A stretch of 64,000 nt of DNA from a virus: the IMG/VR virus record IMGVR_UViG_3300010397_000041, positions 1 through 64,000 of that record, one strand, 5' to 3'. Made by a program: the position numbers and the translations under genes. Positions 44,614-62,955 of this stretch are shown here, one piece after another (the first letter of the stretch is position 1; every line of letters begins with the position of its first letter). The notes beneath the pieces were generated by a model. It searched no databases, was not told the DNA's origin, and worked only from the letters and a program-made list of their open reading frames with translations.

Positions 44614-46398
44614 TCAGCTCGTCGGCTGAATCCCGACGATCATCGACGAGCGGTCGGGGGCGTACGCGGCCATCGTCGACGTCCAGTACACGGACGTGTC
44701 GTACGACATCTGCATGACGGGCCAATCGATGCTCATGTAGTCCTGTGGGCCGCGGATCTCCCAGCAGTTCGCGACGTTCACCCCGGGAACGGTGATCGAC
44801 GACTGGAGGACGACGGCGTTACCCTGCGGCATCCAGGGGTGCACCTTGATGTCGACGGAGCGGCCGGTCGTCTCGTTCACGATGCTCGTGACGACGCTGC
44901 CGAGCTTGACGCCCATCAGCTGGTCCTCGGAGATCTCCAACCTGTAGTTGGAGGCGGACTGGCCGCGCAGCGTCGAAGAGATCTGATGCCTGTCCTGACC
45001 CGACAGCCAGATCTCCTCGGGATCCGCCTTCGTCGCCGCGTAGGTCGCGGCGAACGCGGCCTGGAACTCGGCACCCGGGCTTGCCGTGGAGAACGGGGCG
45101 TTGAGCCGGCCGACGTAGCCGGTGGTGGCGGCCTGCGACCAGATCCACGGGATGATCCCGTCGTAGTTGTCCGGCCGGGCCGACACACCGTCACCGGTGG
45201 CGAGGTTGACGGTCGCGCCGCCCTGGATCGGCCAGGCGGCGACGGTCGCCGTGGCGAGGCTTCCCGAACCGGGGGTACCGATCGCGCCCTGCAGGGTGAG
45301 GGTCTGCGTCGGGGTGCGGCCCGCGGACTGGTTGCTCGGAAACGCCGGGCCGACGTACAGGTAGCGGCTCGCGTCCCCGGGGTCCGAGGCGCCGGTGGAG
45401 ACGAACACCTTGTAGCCGGTGGTCCCGGTCACCGGGTTCGGGATGGTGATGTCGACGACCTGGCCGGCCGAGACTGCGATACCCGAGGACGCGGACGACG
45501 CCTGCGAGACGCCGAACTCGCCGCTTTCGGCGACGACGCGGACGTAGACGTTGCTGGTGAACCCGGTCAGCGCCGTCTCACCGGTCGCCGCGTTCCGGGC
45601 CGCGCCGGTCGGCGTGCCCGACGGGGCGGCGACGAGGCCGCTGTACCCCTGCAGGGTCCCGCGGCCGTAGAGCATCACCCGCTCCTCGGCCAGCATCGAG
45701 GCGTAGAGCGTGGCCATGCGGCTCAGCTCGCGAGTGTCCTGGAATCCCATCGCGCTGAAATAGGTCCAGAACGACTGTTCATCGCTGGCGCCCATCTGCA
45801 CATAACTGAGATTGGTGTCGTCACCGGCGTAGCTGATCTTCTGCGGGCGGTTCCACCACAGCGGGTTCGCCGAGCCCGGGTTCGCGAAGTTGACCTGGGT
45901 CGGATCGGTGAATCCGGGGTTGAACGCGCCCAGCCCGCCGGTTCCGGAACCGGAAATACCGGTCACCCTCTTGTAGCGGTATGAGGTGCCCATTCCCTGC
46001 GTGCGGGGGAACTTGTTCCTCATCGGCGTCAAGATCGGAGCGAGGAGCAGCGCCGGGGCACGCAGGTCGAAGCCGACGAGACCACCGGGCACGGGCGACG
46101 TCGGGGTGATGTCCTTCTGCAGCCAGTCCGCGCCCAACTGCTGGGCGACCGCCGCCTCGACCGCCGCCATCTTGTCCGCGGACACGCCCAGGTTGCCGTA
46201 CGCCTTCGTCAGAACCTGACGGGCGTTGCCGCGGACCGTCGGGACTAGCGCCTTGTTCATGACGTCGAGTTCGACGTCACCACGTTGCGTGTTCGGCGTC
46301 GTCTCGACCGCCATCCGGAAATCAGCGGCGGCCTTGACCAGGTCGGCGTCGGAAAGCTTCGCGCCGAACAGCTCGCGCAGCAGCGTCGTCGAACTCAT
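44614..46398 (-). CDS. Major capsid protein (HK97 fold, SU10-like) with inserted Ig/FN3-like domain
   Basis: FDLRAPALLLAPILTPMRNKFPR; EERVMLYG; YDGI; DPEEIW; VHPWMPQG; DYMSIDWP; GAAAGAGG RBS. Confidence 0.88.
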   Translation of the reverse strand: MSSTTLLRELFGAKLSDADLVKAAADFRMAVETTPNTQRGDVELDVMNKALVPTVRGNARQVLTKAYGNLGVSADKMAAVEAAVAQQLGADWLQKDITPTSPVPGGLVGFDLRAPALLLAPILTPMRNKFPRTQGMGTSYRYKRVTGISGSGTGGLGAFNPGFTDPTQVNFANPGSANPLWWNRPQKISYAGDDTNLSYVQMGASDEQSFWTYFSAMGFQDTRELSRMATLYASMLAEERVMLYGRGTLQGYSGLVAAPSGTPTGAARNAATGETALTGFTSNVYVRVVAESGEFGVSQASSASSGIAVSAGQVVDITIPNPVTGTTGYKVFVSTGASDPGDASRYLYVGPAFPSNQSAGRTPTQTLTLQGAIGTPGSGSLATATVAAWPIQGGATVNLATGDGVSARPDNYDGIIPWIWSQAATTGYVGRLNAPFSTASPGAEFQAAFAATYAATKADPEEIWLSGQDRHQISSTLRGQSASNYRLEISEDQLMGVKLGSVVTSIVNETTGRSVDIKVHPWMPQGNAVVLQSSITVPGVNVANCWEIRGPQDYMSIDWPVMQMSYDTSVYWTSTMAAYAPDRSSMIVGIQPTS

Positions 46399-46480: not shown

Positions 46481-48466
46481 CTATGCGGCGGCGGGCGGGT
46501 CCAGCGCGTCGAGCTGCCGCTGAATCTCGGCCCGCATCGCCGGGTCGGCGCCGGGGGCGTCACGCATCGCGCGCAGCACGCCCTTCTTCACGTCCGCCTC
46601 CGCTGTCTTTGCGAGCTCGGCGGGCGACACCGGAGGCTGCACTCGCGTCCTGGCAGGGCCGCCCGGCCTCGGCGTCTCGTGCAGCGTGGCCTTCACCTCT
46701 GCCAGCCCCTGCGCGAGGGGCTCCATGGCCTTCGTGATGGCGTCGCCGAACTGCGCCGCGAGGTCGGCACTCACCCGTGCGGTGATCGCCTTCGTCAGCG
46801 TATCGGTGTCGGTGGTGCTGGCCGCCTTCGCCATGTCAGGCTCGGCGGGGGTCTCGGTGCCGGCCTCGCCGGCGTGGGTCGCGGCCGCGGCCGCGGCCGC
46901 CTTCTTCAGGCGCTTCCGCATCTTCTTCGCGGCCTTTTCGGCGGCAGCCTTCATCAGGTCGGGGGTGCCGGCCTTCTCGGCGCCGTCCTCGGTCGGCTCG
47001 GACAGCGCGCCGGCGTCAGGCTCGGTCATGTGCTTGATCTCCATGGCTTCGTTCCTCATGAACCAGGTCACGAGCTCCGCCGCCTGCGCGAGCAGCGCGA
47101 TGTCCGCCACCTCGCCGAGCTCGCCGAGGAACAGGCCCATCGCCTCGGAGCGGATCAGGCACGCCAGGCCCTGGATGACGGCCTTCGCGGCCGCGATGTC
47201 GTCCATCTCGGACGCGGCCGCGGCGTTGTCGGTGAGCTGCAGCCCGCCTTCGTCGCCGTCGTCGGCCTTGACCACGTCGGGCGCCGTAGCCTTCTCCTTC
47301 GGCTTGGTGGAGCCGGGCCAGTCGGCGGGCAGCAGGTCCGTCGCGTCGAGGGCCTTTGCGCGATCGGTGATGTGCTTCTTCGCGGCCGCCGGGTCCTTCG
47401 CACGGCCGAACGCCTGGATCGCGTCGTTGAGCTGGGCCCGGTTCTGGATCGGGAACCCGCCCGACGGCATCGCCTCGCCCGCGGCGGCCGCGTCCTCGCG
47501 CTCGCCGGCGGTGAACTTCCGCTTCTCGAGCTCGGTGGCGACCGCCTTGATCAGCGTGTCGAAGTCGGGCTCGACGGCCTTGCTCGAGGACTTCGCGCTG
47601 CCGGTGTCGTCGGCGTCCTCGCTGTCGGGCTTGCCGTCCCCGTCGTCGTCCTCATCGTCCCGGTTGTGGACACCGTCGCCGTCAGGGTCGGAGCCGCCCT
47701 GGCCGCCGTCCTCCGATTGGAAGGGCTTGGCCTTCCGGCCACCGAACTTGCCGGCCTTCTTCCGCTTCGCCAGCGTCTCCGGATCCGCGGCGTCCGGGTC
47801 GTCAGGGTTGGCGACGACGGAGGGGGCGGTGAGCTGGTCGACCAGGGCGGCGGTCATCGGCAGCACCCGACCATCCGAGGTCTTGAGCAGCATCTGTGGG
47901 CCGGGCGCGACAGGGACCGCATCGACCGCCTTCTCGACCTCGTCGCCTTCGACGAACTCGGGGCTGTCGACGAGGTCGAGCGAGCCGGTCGCCTTGTTCA
48001 GCGCGGCCATGCGAAACAGCGCCGACGGCAGCGAGGGCCGGTCGACGGCGCTGACTTCGATCACGTCGCCCCGGCAAACCTTCCCGTTGGGCGCGTCGGT
48101 GGCCTTGGCAAGGCCGTAGTTCGCGACACCGACCGAGAATCCGGTCAGGATTCCGTGCTCGATCTTCGCTTCGGCGACCGGGTCGACGATCTTCGCCCGC
48201 ATGTGCCACGAGTGGTCGTCGGTCTCCCAGACCTCGACCGCCTTACCAATCGGCCGTTGGGCCGAGTGGCCCTCGCGGACATTCCCACCTGACGGCCCGT
48301 GCATGTACGCCGGGATCGCGGCCTTGAGCCACGTCGGGTCCATGCGCTGGCCGTCGGAGTCCAGGTCCGGGCCGGTGAACTTGCCCTCTACCCAGAGGAT
48401 GCCGGCTTCGTCGCGTTCCTTGCGCAGGAACGGGGTGTAGATGTCCAGACGCTCAGCAACGGGCAT
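46481..48466 (-). CDS. Prohead protease fused to scaffold (with AMPSGGFPI domain)
   Basis: DSDGQ; NVREGH; IGKA; GILTGFSVG; IEVSAVDRPS; AMPSGGFPIQN...LNDAIQAFGRA; helical scaffold C-terminus. Confidence 0.85.
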   Translation of the reverse strand: MPVAERLDIYTPFLRKERDEAGILWVEGKFTGPDLDSDGQRMDPTWLKAAIPAYMHGPSGGNVREGHSAQRPIGKAVEVWETDDHSWHMRAKIVDPVAEAKIEHGILTGFSVGVANYGLAKATDAPNGKVCRGDVIEVSAVDRPSLPSALFRMAALNKATGSLDLVDSPEFVEGDEVEKAVDAVPVAPGPQMLLKTSDGRVLPMTAALVDQLTAPSVVANPDDPDAADPETLAKRKKAGKFGGRKAKPFQSEDGGQGGSDPDGDGVHNRDDEDDDGDGKPDSEDADDTGSAKSSSKAVEPDFDTLIKAVATELEKRKFTAGEREDAAAAGEAMPSGGFPIQNRAQLNDAIQAFGRAKDPAAAKKHITDRAKALDATDLLPADWPGSTKPKEKATAPDVVKADDGDEGGLQLTDNAAAASEMDDIAAAKAVIQGLACLIRSEAMGLFLGELGEVADIALLAQAAELVTWFMRNEAMEIKHMTEPDAGALSEPTEDGAEKAGTPDLMKAAAEKAAKKMRKRLKKAAAAAAATHAGEAGTETPAEPDMAKAASTTDTDTLTKAITARVSADLAAQFGDAITKAMEPLAQGLAEVKATLHETPRPGGPARTRVQPPVSPAELAKTAEADVKKGVLRAMRDAPGADPAMRAEIQRQLDALDPPAAA

Positions 48467-48524: not shown

Positions 48525-48854
48525 ATGAGCGACGACAGCCCGCAGTACGAGCCACTCGCGGCCGGCGGCGCAGTGAAAGCGACTGCCTACCTGCCCGACT
48601 TCGATCGGTGTGAACTCGCCATCGCCAACCCGCAGATCAGTGACCGGGGTGTGGTCGATGGCGGCCGGCTCGTAGAGGTCTCGCTACCGAAAGACATCGC
48701 GGCGAAGCTGACGCCCGGCCTGCTGCATGGGCTGTCGGTTGGGCAGACCGCTGATCGGGTCATCCCGCATTGGAACCGCACATCGATGCCGATCGACGCG
48801 CCAGCGCTCGGGATGCTGACAGATACCGACGAGCCGGAGACGGATCAGCCGTAG
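48525..48854 (+). CDS. Small protein carrying permuted prohead-protease motifs
   Basis: GGAG RBS; GGRLVEVSL and AKLTPGLLHGLSVG. Confidence 0.6.
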   Translation: MSDDSPQYEPLAAGGAVKATAYLPDFDRCELAIANPQISDRGVVDGGRLVEVSLPKDIAAKLTPGLLHGLSVGQTADRVIPHWNRTSMPIDAPALGMLTDTDEPETDQP

Positions 48855-49111: not shown

Positions 49112-49535
49112 CGGCGCTCTCCTCGGACTCGGGGGCGTCGAGGCGCATCTGCTTGTCGCGCGCTGCGATCTCCCAGCGGGAGAAGGCGGTATAAACGTCG
49201 CGCTCGTCCTTCCACCCGTCCGATGGGAAGACCATCGCCGGAATCGACGGGTCCCTGCAGAGCACAGCGGCATAGACCCGGTGCTGGCCGTCTATGCCGA
49301 CCATAGAGCCGCTTTTCCGGACTCCGACGATCACCCGCTTGGACTGACGGTCGGCCTCGGACAGTTTCATCAGCGCAGCGACCTTGTCAGGGTCGAGTGG
49401 GCGCTGGCTGTGGACCCGGTCGAACATGATCAGCTGAGGGTCCAGGTAGACCGGCGACAGCTCGTCGTCGTCGAGGCCCAGGTCGGCGGCGGTGTACGTC
49501 GTCGGGTGGTTGTGTTCGCCGTCCTGGTCAGCCAT
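49095..49535 (-). CDS. ParB/Srx N-terminal-like DGQHR domain protein
   Basis: SQRPLDPDKV...IDGQHRVYAA. Confidence 0.75.
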   Translation of the reverse strand: MADQDGEHNHPTTYTAADLGLDDDELSPVYLDPQLIMFDRVHSQRPLDPDKVAALMKLSEADRQSKRVIVGVRKSGSMVGIDGQHRVYAAVLCRDPSIPAMVFPSDGWKDERDVYTAFSRWEIAARDKQMRLDAPESEESADAGGS

Positions 49536-49908
49536 CGGCGGGCACCGGGTCGCCGAGGAACGTCACCGTGTTGCCGGCCCTGACGGACCGCTGGTCCGCT
49601 TCGGGGATGTCCAGCGGTGGCATGTCCAGCGCAGCGCGCGCCTCGTTGACCGTCATCCGTCCGGTTCCGACCTCGGCCGCGAGTCGGCGGTCCTCGAACT
49701 CGTGCCAGGCACGCCACTGGGCGTCCGACATGGGGACGAGCGAGTAGGCGATCTGGTTCTGATCGTCCGGGTTCGGCAGGGTGACGATCAGGTCGACGGT
49801 GACAGCCGTGCGGTTGGGCCACGCGATAGTGAGAGTCACCTCGCCGGGGGCGACGGCTATCCCGGTTGGCCGAACCGGCGAGACGCTGATCTCAGGCAGG
49901 TCAGACAC
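49528..49908 (-). CDS. Small protein with portal C-terminal (crown)-like segment
   Basis: GGAGG RBS; TVNEARAALDMPPLDIPEAD. Confidence 0.7.
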   Translation of the reverse strand: MSDLPEISVSPVRPTGIAVAPGEVTLTIAWPNRTAVTVDLIVTLPNPDDQNQIAYSLVPMSDAQWRAWHEFEDRRLAAEVGTGRMTVNEARAALDMPPLDIPEADQRSVRAGNTVTFLGDPVPADG

Positions 49909-50242
49909 GGGGACCTCCGAAGCCGGGGCCGTTGCGCAGCCTCTGCCGTTGGATCTCTTGCCACAGCCGCTGGCCGTCGATGTGAACCGGTGTGCCGTCG
50001 GGGAGGGAACCGATCGGGGCGCGCCGCTGGATCGCGTCGACCTTGGCGTGCAGCGCGGCGAGGGCCTGCTCGTGGGCGTCGTGGCGAGCGTGCAGCTCGT
50101 CGCGATGCCGGGCGAGGTGTACACGCATCCGCCAGACGGCGAGGGCGCCGGCGGGGGCCGCCCAGATCGCCGAGGCGATCAGGTTCGACCAGATGCCGCC
50201 AGCCGGCCACGCGAAGAACACGTCGAGAAGATGCACAGGCAT
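49901..50242 (-). CDS. Membrane protein with tape-measure C-terminus-like motif
   Basis: GAGGAG RBS; N-terminal TM; VHIDGQRLWQEIQRQRLRN. Confidence 0.65.
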   Translation of the reverse strand: MPVHLLDVFFAWPAGGIWSNLIASAIWAAPAGALAVWRMRVHLARHRDELHARHDAHEQALAALHAKVDAIQRRAPIGSLPDGTPVHIDGQRLWQEIQRQRLRNGPGFGGPRV

Positions 50243-52936: not shown

Positions 52937-53470
52937 TTAGAAGATGCTGCGGCCGCCGCGTGGCGCGCCGGGCGCTTCTCTCATCAGCTGGTCGAGGCCG
53001 CGTCGCTCCCGGTGCCGTTTCCGGTGCTGCCGATCGTCCTGGCCGCCCGGCGTCGCTGCCTTGACCGCCGGTGCCGGCTGGTGGTGCAGCCTCGGCGGAT
53101 CGAGCGGCACAGGCTTCGGCGCGGCTTTGGCCTGCGCTCGCCGCACTGCGTCGTCGGCCGCCAGTTCCCCGGCCGCCCAGCCGGCCCGGTAGCAGTCCCT
53201 CAGAGCCGGGCCCAACGCGCCTTTGCGGGCGTGTTGGTCGAGGATCAGCCGGATCTCGTGCCGCAGGATCTGCGGGTCGGTGGTCGTCCCGCCGGGCCAG
53301 CGGGCCGCGAGGACGCGGGCGACGGCTTCCGGGTCAATAAGTCGGCTGGCAGCCTGGGATACCCGCTCGGCGTAGCGCGGGTTCAGCGCGTCGTGCGCCT
53401 GGAAGCCGATCCACTGCGCCCGCTCCCTGGTCAGGTCGCGGGCTTGCGGCTCGCCCCCCGCCACCACCAC
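52937..53470 (-). CDS. MuF N-terminal-like segment overlapping the portal end (possible frameshift fusion)
   Basis: LGPALRDCYRAGWAAGELAA; 137-nt overlap with portal across a G6 run. Confidence 0.55.
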   Translation of the reverse strand: MVVAGGEPQARDLTRERAQWIGFQAHDALNPRYAERVSQAASRLIDPEAVARVLAARWPGGTTTDPQILRHEIRLILDQHARKGALGPALRDCYRAGWAAGELAADDAVRRAQAKAAPKPVPLDPPRLHHQPAPAVKAATPGGQDDRQHRKRHRERRGLDQLMREAPGAPRGGRSIF

Positions 53471-55643
53471 CAGCCTTCGCCAGCTCGGCTACGGCCGCTT
53501 TGGCTCTCAGGGCGGCGAGCCCCGGCTGGTTGTCCTGCACCATGACGTTCAGTTCGCGGGCCAGCTGCTCCGGCACTGCAGTGAACGTGAACGCGCGGGA
53601 CCTGCCACCCGACTTCTCCAACCGGGTTGCGTAGCGGGCGAACGCACCCAGCTCGGCCGCGACCGCCTTCGCCTCGTCCTTCGGACGGTGCGGAAAGCCA
53701 TCCTCGGCCAGCCCGTAGGCCAGACAGCCCGGCTCGCCGTCCGTGGGGACGAACCGGTGCTGGATGTCCTGGGCGTCGCCGGCGGTGCCGTCGATGCCCT
53801 GCGCCTGGCGGGCCGCCTCGCCAGCCTCCTGGAAGGCCTGCGTGGTGGCGGTCTTGGCTACGGCCGTCTTCTGGCCCGAGCCGTCCGAGGCGGACGCCGG
53901 CTTGGGCGGCGCAGCTTCCTCGCCGGCGTCGGAATCGTCGCCGGAGTCGTCGTCGGATTCTTCGGACTCGTCGGCCTGCTTCCCGCGGGCCGGTCGCTGC
54001 GCGGGCGCGGCTTGGAAACCCGCGACGGCGGCCTGCGAGCCGGCCCTCGCCGCGGCCCCCTGCGCCTCCTGGATCGCCTTCTGGCCGTCGAGGAACAGGA
54101 CGCCGCGGCCGTAGGCGACGAACGGCTCGTCGGCTTCTTCGATCGGCAGCGGCGGCAGGCCCATCTCGTCGCGGGCCTCGTTCAGCGTCCGCCGGCCGCC
54201 TTTGACCTGCGTGTCCAGCACCGCATCGGCCGATGCCTGGTCTTCTTCCTCGAGGCCGAGGAATTTGAACTCGACGGCGGGGTGGACACCGAGGTAGCGG
54301 TGGTTGATGTCGTTGAAGATCGCGGCGAGCCATTTGCACCACGGGTGGATCAGCTTGCGGTACTGGATGTTCTCCTGGCCCTCGTGGTAGCTGCTGCCCC
54401 CCAGGCCGCCGGACTCGATGAAGCCGATCTCCGCCGGGGTGACACCGAACGCGGCGGCGATCAGCTTGACCAGGAACAGGTCGTACTCGGGCTTGTACTT
54501 CTGCGCGTTGTCCGTGAAGGTTGCCAGCTTGCCGCCGGGCAGGCCGATCTGGATCCGCTGCCGTTCGGAAAGGTTCCCCGACAGCGTGTTGTTGATCTCG
54601 GCGCGCCAGCGGCGGACCTCGGCCGGGGTCATACCCTTCGCCGACTCAGGGACCTCGAGGAACGCCATCGGCAGCGACGAGGCGTCGAACTCCTGGGTCA
54701 GCCAGTCGGCGCGTTTCAACCACAGGTTGATCTCGATCAAGGCTTTTTCGACGGGGCTGATGCCGTAGGGCGAGATGGTACGGACCTCGCGGCGGCAGTA
54801 AATCAGCTCGTCGGCGGTCAGCCCGCCGTCGATCGTGCCGTCCTTCCCGATCGCCGCGGTGAACTCGCCACGAGGGAAGCCGTACATGATCTGCTGGAAC
54901 GCGGGATCGGGCGGCAACGGCCGCCGGCCGCGGTTGTCCAGAAGCGGCTTCACGAACTCGCCTGCGATGATCTCGCAGGCCAGGTCGTTGCCGTACGACC
55001 AGCGCGGATTGATCGCCAGCGCGTCGAGGACCAACGACTCTTCGAGCGCCATCCCGAGCCAGTCGACGAAGTTGTAGCCGCCGAACCGGTCGGGCCGCTT
55101 CCAGAACGCACGCGCCTTCGCGATGTCCGGTGCGAGCTTCTCCCGCAGCGCCGACTTCGCCTGGACCTTGCGGATCCCGTCGAGTTCCATCGCGGTGGTG
55201 ACGGCATCCTCGGACACGGTGGTCGCCCAGTCGAGCCCGCAGATCTCCGATTTGATCAGGGAGATGCAGTAGCGGACGATCCCGACGTCGGCTGCCTTCC
55301 GCAGCGTCTCGAACGGCACATGCCGCCGTTCACCGCCGGGGACGTTCCAGCCGACCGGATATTCCCAAACCCTGGGGTCCGTGCGGCCGTCGGGGCGAAG
55401 CGGGTCGATCGCGTACGGCCCGGGCGGGGTGAGCGGGCCGAACGGAGCCGTGTAAGGAAGTTCGCGGGGCAGCGGCTCGTAGGCGCCGATCGCCACACCC
55501 GACTGCACCGCGCCCGCCGCGGCCGCGGCCGCCTGCGCGGACATGTCCCGGGTCTGACCGCCGGCGGCACGGGCCGCCGCCGCGTACGACGCCTTGTCGA
55601 GCTGGCGGCGCTTACGGTTGCGGGCACGGCTGCGAGACGACAC
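53334..55643 (-). CDS. Portal protein
   Basis: PFETLR; ESLVLDA; YGISPVE; AAFGVTPAEIG; TLNEARDEMGLPP. Confidence 0.92.
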   Translation of the reverse strand: MSSRSRARNRKRRQLDKASYAAAARAAGGQTRDMSAQAAAAAAGAVQSGVAIGAYEPLPRELPYTAPFGPLTPPGPYAIDPLRPDGRTDPRVWEYPVGWNVPGGERRHVPFETLRKAADVGIVRYCISLIKSEICGLDWATTVSEDAVTTAMELDGIRKVQAKSALREKLAPDIAKARAFWKRPDRFGGYNFVDWLGMALEESLVLDALAINPRWSYGNDLACEIIAGEFVKPLLDNRGRRPLPPDPAFQQIMYGFPRGEFTAAIGKDGTIDGGLTADELIYCRREVRTISPYGISPVEKALIEINLWLKRADWLTQEFDASSLPMAFLEVPESAKGMTPAEVRRWRAEINNTLSGNLSERQRIQIGLPGGKLATFTDNAQKYKPEYDLFLVKLIAAAFGVTPAEIGFIESGGLGGSSYHEGQENIQYRKLIHPWCKWLAAIFNDINHRYLGVHPAVEFKFLGLEEEDQASADAVLDTQVKGGRRTLNEARDEMGLPPLPIEEADEPFVAYGRGVLFLDGQKAIQEAQGAAARAGSQAAVAGFQAAPAQRPARGKQADESEESDDDSGDDSDAGEEAAPPKPASASDGSGQKTAVAKTATTQAFQEAGEAARQAQGIDGTAGDAQDIQHRFVPTDGEPGCLAYGLAEDGFPHRPKDEAKAVAAELGAFARYATRLEKSGGRSRAFTFTAVPEQLARELNVMVQDNQPGLAALRAKAAVAELAKAGGGGGGRAASPRPDQGAGAVDRLPGARRAEPALRRAGIPGCQPTY

Positions 55644-55665
55644 GGGGCCACCTCGCGCGCCTTGG

Positions 55666-55863
55666 TTAGTCGTGCCGCGGACAGCCGCCCATGACCACCA
55701 GGCCGTAGGTCGGATGCCAGTGGCAGCCGCATCCCAGGCCGCGGCGAAGCCACACGTGGGCGATGAACAGGAAGCGCCGCGGGCCGGGCCTGTACCCGGC
55801 CTCACGCCAGAGGGGACGCATGAACCGGACGTAGCCGATCAAAGTCACAGGGTCCGCCTCCAA
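55666..55863 (-). CDS. Small Cys/His-containing protein
   Basis: CGCHWH...GCPRHD; lies between terminase and portal. Confidence 0.45.
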   Translation of the reverse strand: MEADPVTLIGYVRFMRPLWREAGYRPGPRRFLFIAHVWLRRGLGCGCHWHPTYGLVVMGGCPRHD

Positions 55864-57479
55864 CCCTGCGCGGATTCGCCCCCGCCGAACCAGGCCGACA
55901 TGTCGACCGCCGCAGGCTCCCGCGCTTCGGGCGGCGGCTGCTGGTGCGCGTTGGCGTCGGATTCGGCGATCAGCTGGTCCATGAAGCTGGCGAAATCACC
56001 CCGCAGATCCACGAAGGCGAGGATGAGCGCGTCGGCGTTGTCGGGCGACCGGCCGAGCCGCTCCCGTTGATCGTCCTTCGGCTCGACCTGGATCTGCCCG
56101 CGGCTGTTCGGATGCCACTTCGCGGTCAGCAGCTGATTGCAGGCGTCGTCAGGATTCTCCGCGCCCGACTGCCACACACCGTCAGCGTTGTAGACGGCCG
56201 GGGAGAGGTCCCACGCCTGCTGCTCGGACTGGAGCCGGCCAACCTCCCACCAGATCTCCGACCGCAGGTTCGCGAACCGCTTCGAGTCGGTTGCCTGCTG
56301 GCCGACGTTCACCCCGGTCACCGTCGCCGTGTGGGTGCCGTCGCCGCGGAGCTCCTTCAGCCGGTCGGCTACGCCGGCGCCGATACCGATGCTGTCGACG
56401 TTGACGGCCGTCGCCCCGGTGATCTCAATCGCTTTGAGGACCAGGCGGACGACGGACATGGTGTCGTCGTCGCGGTCCCGCCACTCCCGGCCGACCATCC
56501 GGCCGCGCCGCTCCCGGATCACAGTCTCATCGCCGCCGCCACCGACGTCGACACCGAGGACAACCGGGGTGAGCTCGTCCGGGGTGTACTCGCGGTCGGT
56601 GGGCTGCCGGCACTTCGCCAGGTCAGAGGAGCGCACGACCTGATCGGAGGCGTCCAGCGGGAACTCGCCGAGAACCTTCTCGAACCAGAGCGGAGAGCCC
56701 TCACCCCAGTCGGCGCGCTTCTCCTCCACCCACGTCTTCGAGACCAGCGCGCGGCGCAGCAGATCCGGGACCCGTTCGCCGGTCAGGTTCGGCGTGTCGA
56801 ACGCGGAGATGGTGATGACGTGCCAGCCCGAACCGGGACGGCAGACCTGCGCGAATTCGCTGGAAGGGTCGGCAGGGTTGCCGATCGCCAACAGGGCGCA
56901 GCCCTCGTTGGTCATGAGCGCGTCGGCGGCGGTCCACAGCCAGCCGGGGATCCCGCTCGCCTCGTCCAACGCAACCAGAACGCCGTCGGGGGCGTGGATG
57001 CCCTGAAAGGCGGTGCGGCCCTGCTCCGTGTCGGGCGGTTTCCGGCCGAAGCCGATCAGCTCTTTGCCGAGCTTCCACTCCGTGGTGAGCACCCGGCCGG
57101 GTAGGGGCGTGCCACGTTCCGCGGCGACCGCCGCGGCCTGGCCGATGTAGCGCCACAGGATCGCCTGGACCTGGGCAGCCGACGGCGCGGTCGTGACCGC
57201 GAACGCCTGACCGGGAGTCCGGGTCGCAAGCCAGTGGGCCACGACCCGAGAGGCAGTGTGGGACTTTCCGCAGCCGTGTGCCGACTTGACCGCGACCTTA
57301 CGGTGCCTGGTCAGCGCGGTGACGATCTCAACCTGCTTGGACCACAGATGCTCGCCGAGCACGTCCGACACCCACAGCGCGGGGTCGGTGCGGTACTGCT
57401 GCTGGCGGGCCTCGCTGTCGAGCCGGTCGAGAGCGGCGAGCAGGTTGGATGACAGCCGGTCGGGCAGCGCTACCACCAT
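55845..57479 (-). CDS. terL: Terminase large subunit
   Basis: SAHGCGKS Walker A; VALDEASG Walker B; IGNP; LGVDVGGGGD; NVDSIGIG; SPDNADA. Confidence 0.95.
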   Translation of the reverse strand: MVVALPDRLSSNLLAALDRLDSEARQQQYRTDPALWVSDVLGEHLWSKQVEIVTALTRHRKVAVKSAHGCGKSHTASRVVAHWLATRTPGQAFAVTTAPSAAQVQAILWRYIGQAAAVAAERGTPLPGRVLTTEWKLGKELIGFGRKPPDTEQGRTAFQGIHAPDGVLVALDEASGIPGWLWTAADALMTNEGCALLAIGNPADPSSEFAQVCRPGSGWHVITISAFDTPNLTGERVPDLLRRALVSKTWVEEKRADWGEGSPLWFEKVLGEFPLDASDQVVRSSDLAKCRQPTDREYTPDELTPVVLGVDVGGGGDETVIRERRGRMVGREWRDRDDDTMSVVRLVLKAIEITGATAVNVDSIGIGAGVADRLKELRGDGTHTATVTGVNVGQQATDSKRFANLRSEIWWEVGRLQSEQQAWDLSPAVYNADGVWQSGAENPDDACNQLLTAKWHPNSRGQIQVEPKDDQRERLGRSPDNADALILAFVDLRGDFASFMDQLIAESDANAHQQPPPEAREPAAVDMSAWFGGGESAQGWRRTL

Positions 57480-59150: not shown

Positions 59151-59412
59151 CGTCGCCGAGTAGTGCGGCCAGCTTCCCGTGGGCCACCGAGGTTTCCAAC
59201 GGTACGACCGCCCTGCCCGCGAGGATCGCCTTGCCGAGGGAAACCGCAAACTCGCGGGCTGCGACCTCGACAGCGAGGAGCTGGCCGAGCCATCCGTACT
59301 CCGGGCCGATGGCGTGGTCGGACAGCTCCTGGAGCCATTCCGCGCCTGGCCGTCGGTGGTCGCGTTCTCCGGGCATGCCGCACAGCTCGTACCAGTCCCC
59401 GCTGTCACCCAT
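59143..59412 (-). CDS. Small protein (module A)
   Basis: HAIGPEYGWLGQLLAVEVAARE. Confidence 0.6.
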   Translation of the reverse strand: MGDSGDWYELCGMPGERDHRRPGAEWLQELSDHAIGPEYGWLGQLLAVEVAAREFAVSLGKAILAGRAVVPLETSVAHGKLAALLGDDA

Positions 59413-60430
59413 CGAGGGGGCCTGCCCTCTTCCCGGCGCTCGGCTGTGCAGCACGGAGCATCGCCAGGAACTCGCCGCGGGTCTCGGCGCCGTGCGTGTT
59501 CCGGCCGTGCAGCCACAGCGCGTTCTCGACTCGCCGCTCGTAGAGCAGGTCGACGGCGCCCGGCAGGCCAAGCTCTGCGGCGTACGACGCGAGGTTGGGG
59601 GGATGTTCGTACTCCCAGCCGCACAGCGGGCAGATCGACACGGTCGCGCCTGGCCGGTGCCGGTGGATCTGACCCGGCATGCCGGCGGTCTCACGGCGGC
59701 AGCGGGAGCATGCGCCCTTGGATCGGCGGCGGGTCAACACCGCGGAGGGGATCCCGATGCCGCAGGCGGTGCGGACCGGGCCGACCGCGCGGTCCCGGTT
59801 GGCGATCAGGATGTCCGAGGGCCAGCGAGGATTGGGATCGTCCATGTTGGCCGGGGCTTTCGCGGCCAGGTGGGCTGACAGCCAGGTGAGGTGGATCTGT
59901 CGGCGACGGTCGGCCGCGTACGGCCGGCAGACCGCGCGCAGGACGAGGAGTTCGCTCACCCGTTTCTCCCGGTGCCCCTGCAGCGGTCGACGCAGTCCGA
60001 CGACACATAGCAGCCGCCGTCGAGGTCGAAGCTGGACGGCGGGGCGATCCAGCAGGGGTGACGGCGGACACGCAGGATCGAAGTCGGGTGCGTCTGAGGA
60101 TTGCGCGGGCTGGGCGTGCGCCTCGCCGAGCAGTACGGCGAGCTTCTCGTGGGCCTCGGCCAGCCGTTCGTGCAGCTTCTCGCCGTCAGCCCCAGCGTGG
60201 GTGTCGATCTCCCAGGCGGACCAGTACGGGGAGACCGTCTCATCGTCCACTAGGGGAGCGACCGCGGCGGCCAGCTCGCGTGCTGCGGCCTCGATGGCGA
60301 GCAGTCGGCCATAGGGCCCGTACTCGGCTCCAACGAGATGGTCTTCCGCGAAGTGCTCGACGTCGTCCTCGGCGAAGTGGGATCGGGGAAACCAGTCCCG
60401 GCAGAGCGCACACGACTCGCCCTTGACCAT
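59405..60430 (-). CDS. Fusion of module A + module B + CPLC domain
   Basis: HLVGAEYGPYGRLLAIEAAARE; QIHLT...GPVRTACG...CSRCRRE; CPLCGW. Confidence 0.6.
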   Translation of the reverse strand: MVKGESCALCRDWFPRSHFAEDDVEHFAEDHLVGAEYGPYGRLLAIEAAARELAAAVAPLVDDETVSPYWSAWEIDTHAGADGEKLHERLAEAHEKLAVLLGEAHAQPAQSSDAPDFDPACPPSPLLDRPAVQLRPRRRLLCVVGLRRPLQGHREKRVSELLVLRAVCRPYAADRRRQIHLTWLSAHLAAKAPANMDDPNPRWPSDILIANRDRAVGPVRTACGIGIPSAVLTRRRSKGACSRCRRETAGMPGQIHRHRPGATVSICPLCGWEYEHPPNLASYAAELGLPGAVDLLYERRVENALWLHGRNTHGAETRGEFLAMLRAAQPSAGKRAGPLDG

Positions 60431-61265: not shown

Positions 61266-61605
61266 TCACCTCCAGCCGGGCCGCGGCATCGGCCATCGGC
61301 TCACACGGCCACGAATCCACCCAGGCGTATCGGGCGCGTCGGCGACCTGCTTGGCGATCGCGGTCAGGGCCTTCGCGATGCTGCGCGCCGTTCGGCGGTT
61401 GAATCCGGCGGCGATGCGCATGGCGGCGAGGACAGCGGCGTCGGGGAGGTCTTCGGCTTCGGCGGTGAGCACCGGGTCGACGCGGCCGAGGACCTCGAAG
61501 TCGCCTCGGCAGCCGCAGGGGGATGTCGGCGGCCTTCCGCACTCGGGCCGGGTTCCCGTCGGCGATCCAGGCGGCGAGCGGCGCGCCGAGCGTCGGAGTG
61601 TTCAC
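61266..61605 (-). pseudogene. Frameshifted small gene (extra C in C5 run)
   Basis: High-GC3 frame switches at 61518-61522. Confidence 0.5.
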
Positions 61606-61706
61606 CGCTGCCACCGGTCCCGCTCGAAGTAGACGCCGAGGGTGAAGCCGAGCAGACCGGAGGCGAGGGCGGCCAGCACGATGATCAGGATGGTGCTCGC
61701 GGTCAT
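61602..61706 (-). CDS. 34-aa single-TM protein
   Basis: MTASTILIIVLAALASGLLGFTLGVYFERDRWQR; coupled on both sides. Confidence 0.6.
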   Translation of the reverse strand: MTASTILIIVLAALASGLLGFTLGVYFERDRWQR

Positions 61707-62155
61707 GATGTTGACTCCGCTGCGAGCAGGAACCGCATCGCCTCGTCGCGGCGGAACCCTGCCTGCAGGTGCGCGGCGAGCGTCTCGTACCGGGCCCTCG
61801 CAACCGGGTCAGGAGGCAGGGCTGTCGGCCCGGTGACGACCGCCGTGGCTGACGGCAGCCAGTTGCACGTCAGGATCGGCACACCCCGGCCGGTAAGCGG
61901 ATGGGCCACCGTCTCGATAAATGCGGGCTTGTTCAAAGCATCGTCGTAAGTCCGAGGCGGCCGGACCGCGACGGCAAGCACCGTTTGCGCCGTCGACGAC
62001 ATGTAGATCCCGGCCGGTTCGCCACCCCAGTCCCGGACAATCGTTTCCAGGGCGTCGAACAGCCGGTCTGGTGCTGCGACCCTACTGACGTCGATTTGGC
62101 GGAGTTCGCCGGTCTCGCCGTCGGCCCAGTAGATGTGGGTCAGGTCGCCGGTCAT
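61703..62155 (-). CDS. Stand-alone major-capsid A-domain-like protein
   Basis: GGAGG RBS; EPAGIYMS...TGRGVPILTCNWLPSATAVV matches own MCP. Confidence 0.7.
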   Translation of the reverse strand: MTGDLTHIYWADGETGELRQIDVSRVAAPDRLFDALETIVRDWGGEPAGIYMSSTAQTVLAVAVRPPRTYDDALNKPAFIETVAHPLTGRGVPILTCNWLPSATAVVTGPTALPPDPVARARYETLAAHLQAGFRRDEAMRFLLAAESTS

Positions 62156-62955
62156 GAGGCCTCCGCGAGGCGCATCGTCAGCGCGTGCAGCTGGTCGTTG
62201 CCGAGGCGCCAGGCGTGGCGCATCGACCGGTCGTTGACCCGGCAGCTGACGGGTGGATTCCCCCAGCACCAGGGGCAGTCGGGGTTGCGCGCGTCTCCGC
62301 AGCCGCCGGTCTGGGTTTCGGGGTCTCCGAGGCAGAGCATGCGGCAGGACGGATAGTTGTGATCGTCGTGGCAGCCGTTCGGGCCGCCGGTGCCGCAGTA
62401 GATCAGCCCCGTATCCGGGGAGATCATCAGCGAGGGTTGTTTGCAGGCGTCGCACGTCGCCGCCGCGAGGCGCAGCGGGTAGGGCGCGCGGATCAACCCG
62501 AGTTCGATCTTTGTCCGACCGTGGTAGGAGCGAAGGTCGGCGAGGACTTCCTCGCCGAGGGGATGGTCTGCCGCGAGCTCAGGGAGTAGGGCCAATGCCC
62601 GGTCGAATGGGATCGCGAGGGCCCTGACCCGCCGGCCGTCGGGGGTTCGGCCGCGGTCGAGTGCCGGGTGGACGACCGGCAGCCAGTAGGTCACGGCCTT
62701 GCGTATCTCGCTCGCGAGGGACAGCGGGTAGTCGTCTGTCGGCGGCTGCGAATGCGGCTTCGACGACGAACCCGATACCTGCTCGACGACAGGTCGCTGC
62801 TCGTACTTCTCGGCGAGGCGGTCGAGGAGGCTTGGGTGCGCTTTCTTCCCGGGCGCCAGTTGCTCGGCCGGCGGGTCGTCTCGGTGTTTGAACTCGACGT
62901 GTTGTTCGTGGAGCAGTGCCCGAAGTTCTTCAGCGATCGCGTCGTTCGCTGTCAC
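62152..62955 (-). CDS. Cys-rich actinophage protein (possible transcription regulator)
   Basis: HPSLLDRL...SKPHSQPP...CDACKQPSL...YC; TACGGT -10 leaderless. Confidence 0.65.
   Translation of the reverse strand: MTANDAIAEELRALLHEQHVEFKHRDDPPAEQLAPGKKAHPSLLDRLAEKYEQRPVVEQVSGSSSKPHSQPPTDDYPLSLASEIRKAVTYWLPVVHPALDRGRTPDGRRVRALAIPFDRALALLPELAADHPLGEEVLADLRSYHGRTKIELGLIRAPYPLRLAAATCDACKQPSLMISPDTGLIYCGTGGPNGCHDDHNYPSCRMLCLGDPETQTGGCGDARNPDCPWCWGNPPVSCRVNDRSMRHAWRLGNDQLHALTMRLAEAS

Follow-up and report, generated by a model that had tools for sequence, protein, structure and literature searches.

A predicted free-standing capsid A-domain in a hypervariable accessory island of a soil phage

P0001 is a protein of 150 amino acids encoded on the minus strand at 61703-62155 of a 64,000-nucleotide stretch of viral DNA (the window), which is the first 64 kb of the IMG/VR record IMGVR_UViG_3300010397_000041. 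The source record has a length of 92,425 bp with direct terminal repeats and was judged to be complete. P0001 is very probably a strongly diverged copy of the A-domain of the phage's major capsid protein (MCP), carried as a gene of its own. The description as a "stand-alone capsid A-domain-like protein", proposed by the original prediction, is supported by a profile cut to the A-domain, by a syntenic gene, P0124, in a related phage, by the register of the predicted secondary structure, and by the nearest neighbours in the ESM Atlas.

P0001 is a real gene and is translationally coupled to both of its neighbours, because a GGAGG ribosome-binding site (62160-62164, minus strand) stands 4 nt ahead of its ATG, ATGA overlaps occur at both ends, and the GC content follows the pattern of a coding gene. 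The ATG (62155-62153) shares nucleotides with the TGA that ends the upstream gene, and the stop codon overlaps the ATG of a downstream gene for a membrane peptide of 34 amino acids. The GC contents at codon positions 1/2/3 are 0.68/0.54/0.79. The part of a longer GTG-started frame that lies upstream of the ATG gives 0.90/0.61/0.57 and is non-coding. The exact protein is already on record as a called gene.

Both blocks of the proposed alignment were found in the open reading frame (ORF) and in the MCP. TGRGVPILTCNWLPSATAVV of P0001 and TGRSVDIKVHPWMPQGNAVV of the MCP are identical at 10 of 20 positions, ungapped, from TGR to AVV, and the pair EPAGIYMS and DPEEIWLS is collinear with this strong block at a spacing that is 9 residues shorter in P0001. 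In BLASTP, residues 78-107 of P0001 matched residues 501-530 of the MCP with 10/30 identities at a pairwise E value of 0.002, and the p value from Smith-Waterman shuffling was 0.009; a gapped extension of the match was not significant. Across the phage proteome of 26 thousand amino acids, the E value of the match becomes 0.08, and P0001 has its best proteome match, at 25.4 bits, in an unrelated HTH_31 regulator, a match as strong as that to the MCP. The pairwise match taken alone is at the level of chance, as is expected when about 110 proteins are read by eye.

The MCP (P0002, 594 amino acids; 44614-46398, minus strand) has the HK97 fold of the SU10 type. It matches phrog_13692 at an E value of 1.9e-78, and its AlphaFold (AF2) model, calculated with 62 relatives, has a predicted local distance difference test score (pLDDT) of 78. 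Foldseek groups this model with the capsids of SU10, SPO1 and HK97, with the best match to SU10 (7z48_F, E 1.5e-10). In the notation of helices (H) and strands (E), we take the hairpin E190-209 to be the E-loop, H222-244 to be the spine helix, and E546-578 to be the strands of the P-domain, in line with established knowledge of the HK97 fold. In the model, the spine helix and the A-domain are separated by an inserted domain, residues 264-410, which is rich in beta structure and about 150 residues long. The A-domain, which is the segment resembled by P0001, comprises residues 410-540 (44779-45171, minus strand), as delimited from the secondary structure and alignments A2 and A3, and its elements in the AF2 model are H415-426, E428-434, H443-456, E462-465, H467-479, E505-507, E514-519 and E527-531.

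A hidden Markov model (HMM) of the A-domain was built without P0001 from eight diverse MCP A-domains, which are 31-82% identical to that of this phage. It gave P0001 a score of 7.5 bits, which was equalled by 6 of 20,000 shuffled sequences (p 3e-4), and among 114 phage proteins P0001 was the sole outlier other than the MCP (E 0.027), the next protein reaching 3.1 bits. When P0124 was added to the model, the score of P0001 rose to 11.6 bits (E 0.0014), which none of 20,000 shuffles attained (p < 5e-5), and the next protein reached 2.4 bits. The comparison of P0001 with the A-domain alignment A3 using hhalign gave a P value of 0.0012 over 79 columns, covering residues 32-110 of P0001 in the register of the original prediction.

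The register was also assessed by sliding the secondary structure of P0001, taken from a single-sequence AlphaFold model, along that of the MCP at 530 offsets. The offset set by the weak block, EPAGIYMS/DPEEIWLS, was the best of the 530, with H29-42 placed on H443-456 and E47-54 on E462-465, and the offset of the strong block places E91-96 of P0001 exactly on E514-519 of the MCP. When both blocks were tested jointly, just two distinct registers in the whole MCP scored equally.

In the ESM Atlas, the top feature neighbours of P0001 are viral clusters without a family (score 0.90), and its ten best neighbours that bear a Pfam family are all fragments of HK97 capsids (SrpI-like, P2, SU10_MCP and GP7; score 0.89). 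The Atlas model of P0001 (pLDDT 0.61) is nearest to clusters of the SU10_MCP type and to viral clusters of about 570 amino acids, with TM scores of 0.53-0.54. These scores are modest, with 118-129 features in common with the neighbours. The A-domain of the true MCP, used as a positive control, retrieved fragment clusters of this kind with scores of 0.95-0.96.

These results allow the gene to be divided into parts (all on the minus strand). The A-domain-like core, residues 32-110 (61826-62062), was delimited by hhalign and the secondary-structure register and consists of a helix, a strand, a variable loop and three strands; the HMM envelope covers residues 10-112. Within the core, residues 78-107 (61835-61924; TGR..V.I...W.P...AVV) form the best-conserved block and match the most conserved motif of the MCP, and the best high-scoring segment pair with P0001 falls in this block for 94 of 118 MCP relatives. 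Residues 111-150 (61706-61825) form a C-terminal tail that is predicted by AF2 to contain two helices, in a region of low confidence; in the AF2 models the tail has no counterpart in the MCP, which has the P-domain strands at that place. About 110 residues of P0001 align with the MCP, at an identity of about 21%. They are collinear with MCP residues of about 415-533 and have helices and strands in the same order; the loop that joins the second helix region to the three-strand sheet is 9 residues shorter than in the MCP. The motifs D/E-P...I and TG..V.I...W.P...AV are common to both proteins, the positions kept in P0001 being D/E-P, TG, V.I, W.P and AV.

Several observations weigh against the assignment of P0001 to the A-domain. 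The HMM of the full-length MCP family (A1) gave −0.4 bits (p 0.035), and the hhalign probability was 1.8% against the full-length family and just 19% against the domain profile. The residues N508, H520, P521, Q525 and G526, which are near-invariant in the MCP motif, are changed in P0001. The single-sequence AF2 model of P0001 has a pLDDT of 49, and searches of structure libraries with this model found no capsid. Furthermore, P0001 has no homologues, and purifying selection is not measurable. A predicted complex of MCP residues 120-594 with P0001 scored 0.00, gave no verdict and was counted neither way.

It is on such grounds that P0001 might be regarded as an orphan alpha/beta protein unrelated to the capsid, in which the motif and the language-model neighbours are coincidental or driven by a single motif. 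The proteome-wide E value of the pairwise match with the equal match to a helix-turn-helix protein, the p value of the whole-MCP HMM, the unreliable AF2 model, and Atlas scores that stay below 0.9 for the named clusters with so few common features all fit such a coincidence. It is nevertheless judged unlikely, since the domain HMM singles out P0001 among 114 proteins (7.5 or 11.6 bits versus 3.1 or 2.4 bits), the two collinear blocks are each in register with the secondary structure of the MCP, and a related phage carries an unmistakable A-domain mini-gene in the same island.

This mini-gene was found by searching the whole records of related phages with the MCP profile for second matches. The phage G002 (IMGVR_UViG_3300025941_000016; 99,986 bp), whose portal is 57% and whose MCP is about 70% identical to that of the phage in the window, has a second match at 82392-82658 with an E value of 4.2e-5, covering profile positions 418-509, which belong to the A-domain. 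The corresponding gene, P0124 (L026:1447-1854, minus strand), encodes 135 amino acids with a GC content at third codon positions (GC3) of 0.85. P0124 matches the MCP family at an hhalign probability of 92% (E 5.8e-7) over 93 columns (MCP 432-533) and the MCP in tblastn at 2.5e-7, and to judge from these comparisons it is unmistakably an A-domain gene. The genes for P0124 and P0001 are flanked by the same pair of anchor genes or their homologues, a Cys-rich gene and a gene for a protein of 341 amino acids. In BLASTP, P0001 and P0124 share the same motif with 11/27 identities at an E value of 0.001, and P0124 is the nearest sequence to P0001 overall (25/104 identical). The two proteins have the same domain boundaries and both genes are coupled translationally to a gene for a small membrane protein. 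However, P0124 is far closer to the MCP, ends in a short Cys-rich tail instead of the two helices of P0001, and is set about 1.4 kb farther away from the left anchor gene.

Library searches with P0001 itself returned no true relatives. No homologues were found among 5.8 billion clustered proteins, and none by HMMER against 1.84 billion representatives, where the single match (P0003) is a protein of 2859 amino acids that consists of 17 perfect tandem repeats; each repeat scores weakly and the total is their sum, and the match was judged to be spurious. Pfam, PHROG and NCBIfam gave no family match (Pfam and PHROG at E values up to 1), and neither tblastn against phage GenBank records nor a search of the five nearest relatives' complete genomes gave anything. 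A match of residues 7-43 of P0001 to the 185-position PADLOC profile HEC-02B (13.9 bits, E 0.009) is too short and too weak for that identity and was rejected; it was not reproduced by a six-frame search of the genome. The silence of the Pfam models SU10_MCP and Phage_capsid on P0001 is uninformative, because over this genome they miss the real MCP as well. The MCP family comprises 118 relatives of 440-620 amino acids from soil viromes and from Frankia and Streptomyces prophages; it is almost wholly unannotated, and just one member carries PF17236. Close relatives of P0124 in viral and metagenome contigs were likewise not found beyond its own record.

A mini-gene is present in two of six related phage genomes and is not present in G001, G003, G004 or G005. 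Capsids of this type can be assembled without P0001, because the closest relatives have no copy at all. A search of 19 actinobacterial genomes carrying this type of MCP gave no second A-domain match at E values up to 0.01, a negative that says little because copies as diverged as P0001 fall below this threshold. In the tree of A-domains and mini-genes, the branches of the two mini-genes measure 3.1 and 2.1 substitutions per site, compared with at most 0.2 among close MCPs. The tree does not separate one capture from two, and with two long branches meeting in it the placement of the mini-genes is not settled. Between this phage and G002, the anchor genes on either side share 40-61% identity; therefore, the mini-genes evolve much faster than their neighbourhood. 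On the comparisons made here, P0001 is best described as a lineage-specific, fast-evolving accessory gene.

This distribution bears on the proposal that P0001 is a "capsomer-assembly modulator" of the phage's own capsid, in which a free A-domain would help build the head, for example as a cap or nucleus of capsomers or as a determinant of head size. The 5-fold and 6-fold axes are indeed surrounded by contacts that A-domains make (PMC8346489), and P0001 is co-directional with the head genes, with no terminator detected between them. However, the nearest relatives, with MCPs up to 80% identical, have no copy of it, its gene belongs to a hypervariable accessory island, at a distance of 15 kb from the head module, and P0001 diverges far more than the MCP that it must fit; such a factor is quite improbable. 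The possibility that P0001 is a functionless leftover of a former capsid gene was also considered. P0001 is an extremely diverged singleton, its GC3 of 0.79 compares with 0.86-0.91 in the core genes, and the same genome has a portal fragment within another small ORF, all of which would suit decay. Against this, the frame of 150 codons is intact, with a strong ribosome site, coupling to both neighbours and the codon-position GC pattern of a coding gene, the domain is cleanly delimited, and another phage has a second intact copy, with a GC3 of 0.85, that is bounded in the same way. A decaying remnant is thus the most improbable of these alternatives.

The phage has a GC content of about 70% and is most likely a temperate actinophage of soil. 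A temperate lifestyle is suggested because a tyrosine recombinase gene (PF00589, 37.5 bits) lies at 90239-91522 on the plus strand, in the part of the record beyond the window, and the genome has direct terminal repeats. The phage is assigned to actinobacteria because relatives of its MCP sit in the genomes of Frankia, Streptomyces, Kitasatospora, Amycolatopsis and other actinobacteria. The sole sequencing run that contains the phage is a soil metagenome. Between about 65 kb and 26 kb, in the direction of the minus strand, the gene order is helicase, small genes, terminase, portal, protease-scaffold protein, MCP and further minus-strand genes, with the DnaB-type helicase at 63579-65066, the large terminase (phrog_2) at 55845-57479, the portal at 53334-55805 and the protease-scaffold protein at 46481-48466. 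P0001 is on the same strand as the terminase-to-tail block and 4.2 kb upstream of the terminase. The start of its gene is separated by 15.3 kb from the MCP gene, which follows downstream on that strand; this agrees with the distance first proposed. No promoter-like or terminator-like sites were found between 55 and 64 kb by consensus scans, which are weak in high-GC phages. These findings lend no support to the proposed "early/middle" timing of P0001 or to its production ahead of the capsid. The MCPs of G001, G002 and G003 are 80%, 70% and 72% identical to that of this phage, and the large terminases are about 34% identical in G001 and G002 and 68% in G003. The packaging and head modules are mosaic among these phages, because the identities of terminase and MCP rank the relatives differently.

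The hypervariable island that holds P0001 is bounded on the left by the conserved Cys-rich gene directly upstream (P0121; 62152-62955, minus strand; 267 amino acids as called, with a longest ORF of 353 amino acids) and on the right by the conserved gene for 341 amino acids (59405-60430, minus strand), which has homologues in L005, L003, L016 and L004. The Cys-rich gene has homologues in L005 and L016 at 40-42% identity; its matches to DUF7341 and phrog_1568 are merely weak, and the searches yielded no informative name. Downstream of P0001, P0122 (61602-61706, minus strand) encodes the single-pass membrane peptide of 34 amino acids, and nearly all of its third codon positions are G or C by eye. 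In G002, a gene for 89 amino acids (L026:1847-2116, minus strand) starts with a membrane helix like that of P0122 and overlaps the start of P0124, and comparable membrane-helix genes without an A-domain gene occur in G003 (L016:2523-3008) and G001 (L003:543-887). After the membrane peptide, a GTG-started frame at 61473-61601 (minus strand, GTGA overlap) is coding-like for about 30 codons, after which the pattern is lost, and a second frame with high GC3 nearby continues into a gene for 68 amino acids at 61266-61472 (minus strand). A wrongly called start, a frameshift or a fault in the assembly might account for this change of frame.

As for the function of P0001, the MCP has an N-arm, an E-loop, a spine helix, a P-domain and an insertion domain, and P0001 has none of the five. 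It aligns only with MCP residues 415-533 and has no counterpart of E190-209, H222-244 or E546-578. Lacking the N-arm, E-loop, spine helix and P-domain, P0001 is therefore no subunit of the shell. The best explanation, which we favour with moderate confidence, is that P0001 would be a free and very diverged copy of the A-domain with a new two-helix tail, which would act as a capsid mimic in conflict. P0001 would mimic the capsomer-forming face of the A-domain and bind a partner that normally binds this face, and it would be a conflict gene that stands outside the phage's own assembly line.

The A-domain's helices establish the contacts within pentons and hexons (PMC8346489). Candidate partners may be the host immune sensors of this face (Avs7, Avs8 and Avs10) or the capsid subunits of a competing phage. 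[quoted passage not shown] CapRel, a further possible target, is activated directly by an HK97 MCP (PMC9712102). A decoy, as first proposed, is a reasonable candidate: if P0001 is an A-domain, it may, at less than even odds, bind and block a host sensor. That it would disturb the capsid assembly of competing or superinfecting phages is less likely but conceivable, a part in the assembly of its own phage is improbable, and the remaining share belongs to some other role. A free A-domain might also trigger a capsid sensor rather than block it, which would speak against a decoy.

Two other ORFs in the window had been likened to proteins of the head module. The "portal mini-protein" of the original prediction proved to be real. 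Residues 145-190 of the ORF at 49528-50124 (minus strand) match residues 527-572 of the portal with 48% identity at a proteome-wide E value of 7e-7. This ORF lies between a MuF-like gene and the protease gene and matches phrog_2662 (portal) at an E value of 7e-4 as well as portal proteins in related phages; the long ORF is probably non-coding in its N-terminal part. Other Avs families detect the portal. It is conceivable, albeit doubtful, that P0001 and the portal mini-gene are both pieces of the virion that would act, as decoys or inhibitors, on host pattern-recognition receptors which detect conserved faces of core virion proteins; such fragments would bind the sensor yet prevent its assembly into an active oligomer. 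On the plus strand within the minus-strand head module, residues 52-103 of the ORF at 48525-48854 are about 50% conserved in L002, L003 and L005, where they also lie opposite to the strand of the head genes. This ORF had been proposed as a "protease mimic"; an all-against-all search instead gave just a weak match to the terminase (E 0.008).

Some full-length paralogues of capsid proteins alter assembly, among them the vertex protein gp24 of T4 and the MCP homologues of phage satellites that redirect capsid size. Like P0001, these are extra HK97-derived genes beside the main MCP, and they act through contacts between capsid proteins. However, they are complete HK97 subunits built into shells, whereas P0001 is one domain. 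P0001 shows neither a match to the full profile of an HK97-fold MCP (SU10_MCP PF17236/phrog_13692) nor the complete architecture of one, the nearest solved structure for the phage's own MCP being the SU10 capsid (PDB 7Z48). As a free-standing A-domain, in turn, P0001 shows both collinearity with the A-domain of an HK97 MCP and significant sequence similarity to it.

The only described class of free A-domains, and as such the one that P0001 resembles, is that of the Family 4 "A-domain encapsulins" (PF08967/DUF1884; Pyrococcus furiosus PF0899, PDB 2PK8), which consist of the HK97 A-domain alone in about 100 amino acids (Andreas and Giessen 2021, PMC8346489). Their fold has two helices around a four-stranded sheet; they are cellular proteins of hyperthermophilic archaea and of two genera of Bacteroidetes, encoded in two-gene operons downstream of an enzyme, namely a hydrogenase, OsmC, GAPDH or DeoC (PMC8346489). 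P0001 differs from them in being borne by a phage in an accessory island. It has no match to PF08967 in Pfam at E values up to 1, and no enzyme family was found by Pfam, PHROG or NCBIfam in its neighbours, which are the Cys-rich protein and the membrane peptide of 34 amino acids. The identity of P0001 as a Family 4 encapsulin is ruled out by the absence of this match and of an enzyme partner. No description of phage-encoded free A-domain genes was found in the literature, of which the coverage was incomplete and which gives no proof of absence.

The A-domain signal in P0001 was missed by the full-length capsid profiles and by all library searches, and became clear after a profile was cut to the domain; the search of relatives for second capsid-like matches was also needed to expose it. 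Free HK97 A-domains have so far been described just as Family 4 encapsulins. In the present case, such a domain is very probably encoded by an accessory gene of a phage, with another in the same locus of a relative. Because three families of immune sensors are reported to grip the capsomer-forming face of the A-domain, a natural free copy of this domain is a candidate decoy against such sensors, and it may otherwise be a poison subunit against rival phages.
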